From positions 11,266 through 75,265 of the forward strand of contig JALFHZ010000236.1 in assembly GCA_022776445.1 (NCBI GenBank): DNA of 64,000 bases. Direction: 5' to 3'. The position numbers and the translations under genes are program-made. Source of the stretch: Lachnospiraceae bacterium. Lineage in GTDB: Bacteria; Bacillota; Clostridia; Lachnospirales; Lachnospiraceae. The notes beneath the pieces were generated by a model. It had not been told where the DNA came from and ran no database searches. It saw only the letters and a program-made list of their open reading frames with translations. Of the stretch, positions 1,014-56,820 are shown one piece after another (the stretch's first letter is position 1; every line of letters starts with the position of its first letter).

Positions 1014-1517
1014 TTAAGGCATCTTGATGCCCATCATCGTCCAGATCACGCCCTTCGGAAGCGGAATATTAAAGCCCCTGGTAAATCCGAAGTAACACAG
1101 GCTCCCGAGAGCCACACTCAGCACAACTGCAAAAATCAGATTGATCTTCTTGTCTGCACGCAGCGTCATAATGAAAACCAGCATGCCGATCATGGATGTA
1201 AACCAGAAACCGATCCAGTTCATGGCTGCACAGAACAGGATGCATTCAACCATGATCAGTGCCAGACGTTTCCAGCCGGCTCCGTCAAGATAAGGAGCTG
1301 CCCCTGCCCTTTTCTCTTCATTCTCCTTCCGTCCGTCAAAGATGATAGAGAGAACGGACATCACGATCATACCAATTGCAGAAATATAAGGAAACATTTT
1401 GGGTCCCGGCTCATTGGAAACCAATTTTTCCGGAATCATGCCGGTCTGGTAGATTACCCACAGGGCCAGTGCAATAAACACCGCTCCCATCACATAAGTA
1501 CGATTCAGTTTTTTCAT
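1014..1517 (-). CDS. tctB: TTT small membrane subunit TctB
   Basis: 4-5 hydrophobic helices, EPGPKMFP and C-terminal FNIPLPKG motifs; between tctC and tctA; start moved to MKKLN on RBS grounds. Confidence 0.88.
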   Translation of the reverse strand: MKKLNRTYVMGAVFIALALWVIYQTGMIPEKLVSNEPGPKMFPYISAIGMIVMSVLSIIFDGRKENEEKRAGAAPYLDGAGWKRLALIMVECILFCAAMNWIGFWFTSMIGMLVFIMTLRADKKINLIFAVVLSVALGSLCYFGFTRGFNIPLPKGVIWTMMGIKMP

Positions 1518-54857: not shown

Positions 54858-55376
54858 TCAGCATTTCTCCGGCTCATCATACTCCTCGCCAAAAGTGTCA
54901 ACCGTCATGCTTTTGATTTTCTGCTCTTTCAGCGGTCTGTCATTGTAATCGGTACGAACCTCAGCGATGGCATTTACTACATCCATGCCTTCCGTCACCT
55001 TGCCGAATGCCGCATAGGCACCATCCAGATGAGGAGCATCCTTGTGCATGATAAAGAACTGAGATCCTGCAGAGTTCGGCATCATGGAACGTGCCATGGA
55101 CAGAACTCCTGCCGTGTGCTTTAAGTCATTCCTGAAACCGTTCTGTGCAAACTCACCCTTGATGGAGTATCCCGGGCCGCCGGTGCCGATTCCCTTCGGG
55201 CAGCCGCCCTGAATCATGAAGCCTGCAATCACTCTGTGGAAAATCAGGCCATCATAAAAGCCCTTCTCTGCAAGGCTGATAAAGTTCTTCACCGTATTCG
55301 GAGCAATCTCCGGATACAGCTCTGCACGGATCACTCCGCCATCTTCCATCGTAATCGTAATCTCTGGATTTTTCAT
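54858..55376 (-). CDS. Cyclophilin-type peptidyl-prolyl isomerase
   Basis: FHRVI.GFMIQGG, SMAR...NSAGSQFFI and HLDG.YAAFG. Confidence 0.95.
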
Positions 55377-55482
55377 ATCATTCATTCTCCTTCGTTTTCT
55401 ACCATAATACCATTTTTCTCCCAAAAATACAATGCAGCCGTCAAAAACGAATCATCCTCAGCACCTGCAAAAGCATAACATG

Positions 55483-55630
55483 AAAAACCTCTCCATACCG
55501 GAGAGGCTCTTCTACAACAATTCTATAAGAGGTAAAAAAGGGAGGAGAGCTGATAAGCAACTTACCAGCTCGAGTATTATGAAAAAAATCTTATAAGCAC
55601 TTCATAAACAACTCTGTTCTGTTGTTTATG
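55483..55630 (-). ncRNA. Putative trans-acting small RNA with anti-SD and anti-start-codon loops
   Basis: -10 TATACT at 55636-55641; 10-bp 5' hairpin (55603-55630); second hairpin (55547-55571); terminator CCTCTCC/GGAGAGG plus T5 (55483-55506); no credible ORF. Confidence 0.65.
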
Positions 55631-55651
55631 GTTATAGTATAGGCAGAAATC

Positions 55652-55711
55652 GTGAAGAAATCGTGATGATTGTGTAAAAGCTTTTTGAATGATTTGTGAA
55701 CAAACTATGAA
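55652..55711 (-). promoter_or_regulatory. Six 11-bp-phased TTCAC-like half-sites (OmpR/PhoB-type response regulator array)
   Basis: Plus strand GTGAA 55652, GTGAT 55663, GTAAA 55674, TTGAA 55685, GTGAA 55696, ATGAA 55707. Confidence 0.72.
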
Positions 55712-55713
55712 TG

Positions 55714-56637
55714 TCAGCGCATGATGATATATCCGGCATACACCGCATACATAATCAGCATGATCCATCCCTCCAGGCGGCTGATGCGCTGTTTGCTCCA
55801 GCAAAGCAGCCACACAATCACACTGAATCCGATCAGGCACATGGCATCAAAAACAGAAAGAATGCCGACACGGACAGGTTTGACAGCAGCGGACAGTGCC
55901 AGCACCATCAGAATATTGAAAATGTTGGATCCGATCACATTGCCCAGTGCCAGTCCATTTTCCCCTTTTCCAGATGCGACCATGGATGTAACCAGCTCCG
56001 GAAGAGAGGTTCCCAGCGCTACAATCGTCAGTCCGATCAATGTCTGACTCAGTCCGAAGGAGCGCGCGATGGCGCTCGCACAGTCTACCACCATATTTCC
56101 TCCGCACACAATCGCTGCAACACCGCCCACAATATAGACCAGGCAGCGGATCGGAGAAAGTGCCTGATATTCCTCCTCTCCCTGTACACGATTGTTTAAG
56201 GCATCCCGAATCGTCAGGAACATGAAAACGGCAAACATGATGAGCAGAAGAAACGCATCCATACGGCTCACCGTATGATCAAAGAGAATCATGATAAAGA
56301 GAACCACCGCAGCCAGTACAGAAGCCGCATAATCCCAGCGCAGCTTCACCGCAAAGGGACGAATCACGCCGCAGGCTCCAAGCACAACCAGGAGGTTGAA
56401 CATATTGGATCCCAGAACATTTCCCACCGCAATATCATTGTTGCCCGCGAAGGACGCCGCCGTACTGACTGCCAGCTCCGGCGCACTGGTTCCGAACGCC
56501 ACAATCGTCAAACCGATGATAATGCTTGGTACACGCAGCACCTTTGCGATGGAAGAGCTCGCCTCCACAAAATAATCCGCTCCCTTGATCAGAAGCACAA
56601 AACCAACTACCAGCAAAACATACTTCATCATTCCCAT
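55714..56637 (-). CDS. Ca2+/Na+ (CaCA, YrbG-like) antiporter, likely Mn2+/Ca2+ exporter
   Basis: Two alpha repeats GTS.PEL...GNV.GSN.FN; downstream of a yybP-ykoY riboswitch. Confidence 0.92.
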   Translation of the reverse strand: MGMMKYVLLVVGFVLLIKGADYFVEASSSIAKVLRVPSIIIGLTIVAFGTSAPELAVSTAASFAGNNDIAVGNVLGSNMFNLLVVLGACGVIRPFAVKLRWDYAASVLAAVVLFIMILFDHTVSRMDAFLLLIMFAVFMFLTIRDALNNRVQGEEEYQALSPIRCLVYIVGGVAAIVCGGNMVVDCASAIARSFGLSQTLIGLTIVALGTSLPELVTSMVASGKGENGLALGNVIGSNIFNILMVLALSAAVKPVRVGILSVFDAMCLIGFSVIVWLLCWSKQRISRLEGWIMLIMYAVYAGYIIMR

Positions 56638-56665
56638 AAATCTTTCCCCTTTCGTATTTTCAGGC

Positions 56666-56820
56666 AAACAAAAAGCAAGCCTTTTATCGTATCACAAAGA
56701 CACCATAAAAGTCTCGCTTATTATATGCGTACCGGGCCAGTTCTACTCGTTTCCTGACGATTCTGACCGTGATGACGACAGCGCATAACAGAATACATCT
56801 GCAAGCTACTCCCCTTTATT
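56666..56820 (-). ncRNA. yybP-ykoY (Mn2+) riboswitch with expression-platform terminator
   Basis: Minus strand AAAGGGGAGTAGC...CGTCATCACGG...CCGGT...GCGAGAC aptamer; terminator AAGCGAGACTTTTAT/ATAAAAGGCTTGCTT followed by TTTT. Confidence 0.85.

Follow-up and report, generated by a model that had tools for sequence, protein, structure and literature searches.

The window, the whole stretch of DNA that was analyzed, spans 64,000 nucleotides (nt) of the genome of a Lachnospiraceae bacterium (GenBank assembly GCA_022776445.1, contig JALFHZ010000236.1, positions 11,266 to 75,265 of the forward strand). Positions 55483-55711 of the window carry, on the minus strand, an array of phased TTCAC-like half-sites, a -10 box and a sequence with three predicted hairpins. 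Judging from its layout and conservation, the region is very probably an uncatalogued small-RNA (sRNA) gene of gut Lachnospiraceae. We consider it likely to be an independent, trans-acting gene with a minus-strand product of about 147 nt, which would be driven by a response regulator and act as the RNA arm of an htrA-linked stress regulon, repressing the translation of exported proteins. The features of this module, followed by its neighbors and an opposite-strand open reading frame (ORF), are:

55652..55711, minus strand: array of six half-sites, presumed OmpR-family response-regulator sites in place of a -35 element
55636..55641, minus strand: -10 box TATACT, with ATACT invariant in a 20-sequence alignment
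55603..55630, minus strand: hairpin 1, a 5′ hairpin of about 10 bp, present in the minimum-free-energy fold and conserved in the genus with a loop of varying length
55572..55588, minus strand: single-stranded anti-start segment UUUUUUUCAUAAUACUC, the complement of GAGUAUU-AUG-AAAAAAA
55547..55571, minus strand: hairpin 2, 11 bp, between the anti-start and anti-Shine-Dalgarno segments, with covariation
55534..55549, minus strand: anti-Shine-Dalgarno (anti-SD) segment CUCUCCUCCC followed by UUUUUU, invariant in the genus, with UCCUCCC at 55546-55540
55483..55508, minus strand: intrinsic terminator, a GC-rich stem (about 55508-55488) and UUUUU (55487-55483)
55714..56667, minus strand: gene of the Na+/Ca2+ exchanger family, the upstream neighbor (Pfam Na_Ca_ex, 218 bits), outside the module
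54858..55376, minus strand: gene for a cyclophilin-type peptidyl-prolyl isomerase, the downstream neighbor (Pfam Pro_isomerase, 174 bits), outside the module
55579..55596, plus strand: mini-ORF ATGAAAAAAATCTTATAA (MKKIL), not considered a gene

Module anatomy and predicted promoter

Read directly on the minus strand, the module runs from the array through the -10 box, hairpin 1, UUUUUUUCAUAAUACUC, hairpin 2 and UCCUCCC to the terminator. The six half-sites begin at 55711 (TTCAT), 55700 (TTCAC), 55689 (TTCAA), 55678 (TTTAC), 55667 (ATCAC) and 55656 (TTCAC), an exact 11-bp period. Their pooled profile is y-n-T-T-C-A-[C/T]-[A/G], the ynTTCAC(A/G) form. The last half-site is 9 nt from TATACT, and the offset from array to -10 box is 15 nt. 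The -35 position, 17 bp upstream of the -10 box, reads CGATTT (55664-55659) and has no TTGACA-like match. A simple promoter and terminator scanner picked up neither the TATACT box nor the terminator, as expected for a promoter that lacks a -35 element. The array is invariant or nearly so in 20 orthologues from the genus, where the flank upstream of it is unalignable, and it is also kept in distant Lachnospiraceae genera. TATACT, TATAGT or TATAAT is found at the same offset in every member of the regulon described below. From spacing alone, transcription is predicted to start near A55629.

The three hairpins form the minimum-free-energy fold (-47.4 kcal/mol, z = -4.9 against shuffled sequences). 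Hairpin 1 is swapped for other hairpins or missing in some more distant clades, which means that the design does not require it and that it is probably dispensable for pairing. Within the anti-start segment, UUUUUCAUA is invariant across four paralogue classes and the whole family, and all paralogues and 12 distant genera have CUCCUC or CCCCCC right after the hairpin on its 3′ side. A hairpin with a T-run follows 37-64 nt past the anti-SD in 59 of 70 distinct tails, and its sequence varies freely between genomes. When hairpin 2 is looped out, its flanks read as the reverse complement of GGGAGGA-GAGUAUU-AUG-AAAAAAA. An initial annotation of the locus had described the six phased half-sites in place of a -35, the TATACT box, a transcript of about 150 nt with this order of hairpins and single-stranded segments, and flanks complementary to GGGAGGA-N7-AUG-AAA-AAA; direct reading and folding agree with it on each point. 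Its view that the array is of response-regulator type is supported by the fixed offset from the -10 box.

Array-driven paralogues and htrA

We scanned the whole 3.16-Mb genome with a weight matrix of the half-site (consensus y-n-TTCA[C/T][A/G]). Four-site arrays number 10, 7 and 4 at thresholds of 18, 22 and 30 bits, versus 0-1, 0 and 0 in five locally shuffled genomes. Six loci remain once TATAnT is required at the window's own offset: the sRNA of the window, one locus each on contigs C222, C73, C59 and C150, and a weak array before a ParA-like gene that is probably there by chance. The loci on C222, C73 and C59 each have the array at a 15-nt offset, then UUUUUCAUA(A/C)U, a different hairpin, and CUCCUC(CC) or CCCCCC. 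By these shared sequence motifs they are paralogous sRNAs directed against the ribosome-binding site (anti-RBS). Their genomic contexts are unrelated to one another. A BLAST search for paralogues in this genome gave no match because only short motifs are shared.

The genome, 88% complete, therefore appears to hold four array-driven copies, and there is a fifth, tandem copy with a weak array on C59. A covariance model of the conserved core (R1) is too specific for the paralogues, scoring 7.9 bits on C222 and 14.9-17.4 bits on C59, and MAFFT mis-registers the paralogue hairpins; copy number was therefore counted with a DNA pattern. This pattern (box core, -10 box and anti-AUG) has 158 matches in 41 of 41 genomes of the genus, versus 17 for a reversed control. 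The matches fall into four recognizable conserved classes, and by this sequence pattern the genus has at least four paralogous classes, the sRNA of the window belonging to one of them.

On C59 there are two tandem copies of class D about 270 nt apart (L032:977-1028 and 1241-1348, minus strand), each with UUUUCAUACUCAUA, a hairpin and CCCCC. The array stands on the upstream copy, and the downstream copy has CATACT and weak half-sites only. The class-B copy (C73:5500-12000) is directly upstream of, and on the same strand as, a gene for an M42 aminopeptidase and an Opp-like operon (SBP_bac_5 and permeases). No clear terminator was seen between this copy and the aminopeptidase gene, and read-through or local regulation is possible.

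The array on C150 precedes an htrA-like gene that is cut by the contig end and whose product reads ...GSGIIVGQNGDELLIVTNNH. Full-length orthologues of this gene carry Trypsin_2 and PDZ domains, which identifies it as htrA. It is the only protein gene in the genome scan with a strong, correctly placed array. The array is found upstream of htrA in two of three relatives examined within the genus, and the third has none above threshold. In most of 29 other Lachnospiraceae genera, htrA is preceded by (A/T)TCACA or AACACA boxes at 11 bp and then by a GATAGACT-like -10 box. Because the same box and -10 layout precede htrA, we predict that the sRNAs are the RNA arm of an envelope or secretion-stress regulon. 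The search for paralogous copies that the initial annotation had proposed thus turned up both sister sRNAs and htrA under the same box.

The htrA gene is split by a contig break: its N-terminal part is at C150:1-629, and the C-terminal 246 amino acids are at C128:2-739, with 89% identity to the orthologue in genome G033.

A further four-site array (24.8 bits) at C93:34735 on the plus strand lies about two helical turns further from its TATACT than the arrays of the sRNA promoters do. Downstream (within C93:33500-36500) are about 110 nt that contain no anti-AUG motif, and then a strong terminator. This locus may encode a further small RNA of the same regulon.

Predicted pairing and targets

UCCUCCC would cover the Shine-Dalgarno (SD) sequence of an mRNA, and UUUUUUUCAUAAUACUC would cover the spacer, the AUG and A-rich codons 2-3, as in a start that encodes MKK. 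On pairing, hairpin 2 would be looped out where the two paired segments meet. In every paralogue class and in the distant members, nothing separates the hairpin from the anti-SD on its 3′ side, and the gap from CAU to hairpin is usually 5-8 nt, so looping out the hairpin restores a natural SD-AUG spacing. The implied spacing is natural in 10 of 12 distant genera and in all paralogue classes but C222, which the script mis-parsed and which has 6-7 nt when read by eye. The anti-start and anti-SD segments are the only invariant unpaired parts of the RNA, and no protein-binding motif of the GGA type was found in it.

Targets were predicted with duplexfold on 2,961 called start regions, using crude gene and signal-peptide calls. 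N-termini resembling signal peptides make up 37 of the top 100 targets, against a background of 15.3% and 19-26 of 100 with reversed or shuffled RNAs. Seven of the top ten predicted targets are solute-binding lipoproteins (three SBP_bac_3, one SBP_bac_5 and DctP) or membrane transporters (DctM and CLC). This enrichment for exported proteins is suggestive, not proof.

We propose that an OmpR-family response regulator would bind the phased TTCAC(A/G) array, one site per 11 bp, in place of a -35 element, and that a two-component system for envelope or secretion stress would induce the sRNAs and htrA together. The sRNAs would then block 30S binding, preferentially on mRNAs of lipoproteins and transporters, so that the export load falls while HtrA clears misfolded protein. 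A bolder form of this model is possible, though we hold it to be doubtful. It gives hairpin 2 a function: the SD of the mRNA and its spacer-AUG-AAAAAA would bind the two flanks of the hairpin, and the resulting three-way junction would read both the SD-AUG spacing and the MKK-type start. On this view the family would serve as a dedicated brake on Sec-exported lipoproteins and transporters, and would be the first RNA arm of a CssRS-type response, widespread in gut Clostridia.

Candidate regulators and other circuits

The canonical CssR box of B. subtilis is TTTTCACA (PMC6749698), and htrA is controlled by CssRS in Bacillus, by CiaRH in Streptococcus and by LisRK in Listeria (PMC12826053). The half-sites of the array resemble the CssR box, which is a likeness to a published consensus and not binding. 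Given this resemblance, the link to htrA and the lack of boxes at pstS (below), the regulator may be CssR-like.

Several results weigh against the proposed stress regulon. The genome has 14 OmpR-type regulators, and none of the nine that were scanned reached an NCBIfam cut-off. When all 14 were used in tblastn searches, none was found near the sRNA (90 loci) or htrA (30 loci). The half-sites TTCACA and TTTACA also fit the PhoP consensus of B. subtilis, TT(A/T/C)ACA. In the minimum-free-energy fold the anti-start segment is partly taken up by a weak A-U helix. In the target scan, the mean duplex energy is just about 1 kcal/mol better than with reversed or shuffled RNAs, and a mild enrichment for exported proteins is also seen with composition-matched controls. 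A generic anti-RBS sequence could bind most mRNAs, which leaves specificity unaccounted for.

Some of these results would fit a real, regulator-driven RNA that belongs to another circuit, which we regard as unlikely but not negligible. The array would then answer to phosphate or cell-wall signals through a PhoP- or WalR-type regulator, or the RNA would act on a few specific mRNAs or titrate a protein. In addition to the PhoP fit and the regulators that fell short of NCBIfam cut-offs, TTTACA is a partial match to the WalR box read in reverse; TTCACA, however, has a C where WalR requires A or T. The signal in the genome-wide target scan exceeds that of controls only modestly, and csRNAs, the CiaR-controlled sRNAs of streptococci, have just a handful of validated targets (PMC4152353). 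Against a phosphate circuit, the best four-site score upstream of pstS and pstC is -8.5 bits, versus 30-39 bits at the sRNAs and htrA, and the PhoB-like regulator is located in the pst cluster, away from any box. PhoP was rejected as the regulator since pstS has no boxes. The single protein gene behind a strong array is htrA, a hallmark of CssRS, CiaRH and LisRK regulons, and titration of a protein is at odds with the lack of GGA-type motifs and with an invariant single-stranded portion that consists of the anti-AUG and anti-SD segments only.

No two-component genes were found beside htrA at 30 loci. A regulator on C240 has a CiaR-like recognition helix, VEIYISFLRKKL, and is a lead only.

A second, more distant HtrA paralogue (C197:3059-4372, minus strand) is 2.5 kb from an orphan OmpR-type regulator (C197:6950-7660, plus strand). 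The regulator has no adjacent kinase, and a MutS2-like gene lies between it and the HtrA paralogue. It is one candidate for the protein that binds the array.

Conservation and independence from neighboring genes

A 251-nt stretch containing the module has a counterpart in 36 of 36 other genomes of the genus, where about 190-240 nt align at 70-89% identity. When 20 of these genomes are aligned, conservation starts exactly at the first half-site and stops at the U-run after the anti-SD. The terminator hairpin differs in sequence from genome to genome, and both flanks are unalignable. The exact gapped core pattern is present in 71 species genomes, and records that carry it include Hungatella (among them H. 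hathewayi WAL-18680), Lacrimispora indolis, Ventrimonas faecis, Brotaphodocola, Copromonas, Lachnoclostridium and many metagenome-assembled genomes (MAGs) of Lachnospiraceae.

With one genome taken per genus, R1 matches 32 of 150 other Lachnospiraceae genera. Twelve of these matches were read by eye, and 11 carry the array, a -10 box, UUUUUCAUAAU, a hairpin and CUCCUC(CC), most with a terminator as well. The weakest match (L133, 36.7 bits) has two clear half-sites only and no clear -10 box.

Six MAGs of rabbit-gut Lachnospiraceae (L043, L044, L050, L066, L079 and L098) are missing the 5′ hairpin, and the 5′ end of the RNA is AUAGAUAGCCAAUAUGAUUUUUUUCAU. The complement of this sequence would encode MKKIILAI(C/Y)VLL, which resembles the start of a signal peptide. 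The altered 5′ end may be an extended complementarity to a lipoprotein mRNA.

The position of the module in this genome could also suggest a cis-acting untranslated region (UTR), belonging either to the cyclophilin gene, as its 5′ leader or attenuator, or to the antiporter-family (exchanger) gene, as its 3′ UTR. The exchanger stop codon (55714) is 3 nt before the first half-site, with no terminator between them here, so read-through is possible. The cyclophilin gene is on the same strand and begins about 105 nt past the sRNA terminator. We nevertheless find a UTR very improbable. In most relatives examined the module is convergent with a downstream Na_Ca_ex gene and no cyclophilin gene follows it; with neighbors and orientation differing in this way, the module is not the leader of the cyclophilin gene and not the 3′ UTR of the antiporter gene. 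The array, -10 box, RNA and terminator are conserved and the neighbors are not, and the paralogues lie in unrelated contexts, as noted above. The reading of the region as only a cyclophilin 5′ UTR, which the initial annotation had named as a way for its proposal to fail, does not hold in the relatives.

Between the terminator and the cyclophilin start (55376-55482, minus strand) there is a TTGACG and an extended -10-like element, TGgTATTAT. Since these elements precede its start, the cyclophilin gene probably has a promoter of its own.

The module has its own predicted promoter and terminator, is conserved independently of its flanks, contains a covarying structure and has no conserved ORF. 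These are the features of an independent sRNA gene, which agrees with the proposal of an unannotated minus-strand sRNA in the initial annotation.

Strand and covariation

Across 61 distinct sequences, hairpin 2 is paired in 93.6% of cells, versus 23-52% when the partner is slid, and changes on both sides are seen at 6 of 12 pairs; the outer 3′ arm is fixed by the search pattern and cannot vary in this set. Its wobble pairs on the minus strand are 40 G·U and 0 A·C, and the fold is for this reason assigned to the minus-strand RNA. The terminator was not used for strand assignment because most tails (55 of 70) are also terminator-like on the opposite strand.

The plus strand reads GGGAGGAG-hairpin-AUG AAA AAA AUC UUA UAA, so that MKKIL stands behind a strong GGGAGGAG site and could be a leader peptide or small toxin, with the minus-strand features incidental or an antisense partner. 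Several codon-5 substitutions are synonymous within the genus, and in some distant homologues the frame gives a hydrophobic peptide, MKKIILAICVLL being one example. This reading is close to refuted: the frame has 5 codons in 60 of 84 homologous modules and 8, 11, 12 and up to 33 codons in the others, changes in the length of the A-run give frameshifts, nothing is conserved past the pattern-fixed MKK, the 40 wobbles would be A·C mismatches on this strand, the conserved promoter elements face the minus-strand direction, and there is no conserved plus-strand promoter in the flank there, which is unalignable. With its variable length and frameshifts, MKKIL is not a conserved gene, and its expression, the other outcome by which the initial annotation was to be judged, finds no support. 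The same lack of conservation in the opposite-strand frame led us to reject a type I toxin-antitoxin system.

Comparison with known systems

Rfam 15 contains no family that corresponds to the sRNA and gave no gathering-level match in the window, and nothing credible was found in the paralogues or in 12 family members. The csRNA family (RF02379) scores 24.0 bits (E = 0.69) on 55546-55630, below its gathering threshold of 57 bits. The literature search gave no report of an sRNA from Hungatella, Lacrimispora or Enterocloster.

The csRNAs are multiple homologous sRNAs of about 90-150 nt per genome, and their known targets are mostly transporters (PMC4152353, PMC3091779). The CiaR box, TTTAAG-N5-TTTAAG, is 10 nt upstream of the -10 box, and CiaRH has been reported solely in streptococci (PMC3091779). 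Both families have several homologous copies per genome under one regulator box. In both, direct-repeat boxes 9-10 nt upstream of the -10 box replace the -35 element, and htrA, which CiaRH controls in streptococci, appears here too to be under the same regulator, in silico only. In csRNAs an anti-SD and an anti-AUG segment lie unpaired between stem-loops; here the two segments are present and predicted to be unpaired, with hairpin 2 between them. Almost identical anti-start stretches (UUUUUUCAUAAUA) occur in the two families, the one here nearly matching the csRNA consensus UUUUUUCAUAAUAAUCUCC. The 13 shared nt can be explained by shared function because both complement AUGAAAAAA. The differences are that the box here is TTCAC(A/G) in six phased copies, whereas csRNAs have one TTTAAG-N5-TTTAAG pair; that a conserved, covarying hairpin splits the anti-AUG from the anti-SD here and a separate third hairpin is the terminator, whereas the two segments are contiguous in csRNAs; and that the host belongs to the Lachnospiraceae (Clostridia). 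The initial annotation had suggested csRNA-like logic under a different regulator box, an analogy that fits the anti-SD and anti-AUG design and is strengthened by the box shared with htrA.

LhrC1-5 are multicopy sRNAs of Listeria monocytogenes that are induced by LisRK and use CU-rich motifs to pair with the SD of mRNAs for surface and exported proteins (PMC4132741). LisRK is also linked to the control of htrA (PMC12826053). The family described here would likewise be a multicopy sRNA family tied to an envelope-stress two-component system. LhrC, however, has three redundant UCCC motifs in its loops and linker and no anti-AUG or poly-U segment, whereas the sRNA here has one CUCCUCCC in the linker plus the anti-start segment, and UCCC is missing from the freely varying loops of hairpins 1 and 2. 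No LisR consensus box is known for comparison.

The CssRS system of B. subtilis (htrA and htrB) is similar in its box, TTTTCACA against ynTTCAC(A/G) here, and in that a gene for an HtrA-family protease carries it. CssR sites in B. subtilis also occur as tandem copies phased at 11 bp upstream of the -10 box. The CssR regulon of B. subtilis is not known to include any sRNA. The cssRS genes lie beside htrB in B. subtilis, unlike the arrangement here, where the genes next to htrA include none of a two-component system.

Escherichia coli has envelope-stress sRNAs that depend on sigmaE (MicA, RybB and MicL) or on Cpx (CpxQ), and its envelope-stress regulon joins the DegP/HtrA protease to sRNAs that lower the synthesis of exported proteins. 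The likeness is one of functional logic only. The sequences, the regulators (a sigma factor, or an RNA derived from a 3′ UTR) and the host envelope are unrelated to those considered here. The E. coli sRNAs are Hfq-dependent and act mostly by seed pairing at specific mRNAs, not as a generic complement of SD and AUG.

The overall design is therefore already known from csRNA/CiaRH and LhrC/LisRK. New here are the box, the six phased sites, the hairpin that splits the pairing segments and the host clade.

Significance

Lachnospiraceae are dominant gut commensals for which almost no RNA regulators have been described. The analysis defines a promoter box, a regulon (htrA and at least four sRNA classes) and a widespread sRNA family with no entry in Rfam. 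Its carriers include the cultivable Hungatella hathewayi, Lacrimispora and Ventrimonas faecis, so it is directly testable. The results suggest that the combination of HtrA protease and anti-RBS sRNAs under one envelope-stress two-component system reaches beyond Streptococcus and Listeria into the Clostridia, by shared ancestry or by repeated convergence. If this is true, the CssR-type secretion-stress response would gain a post-transcriptional arm, which would matter for the envelope biology of gut bacteria and for protein secretion engineering in Firmicutes.

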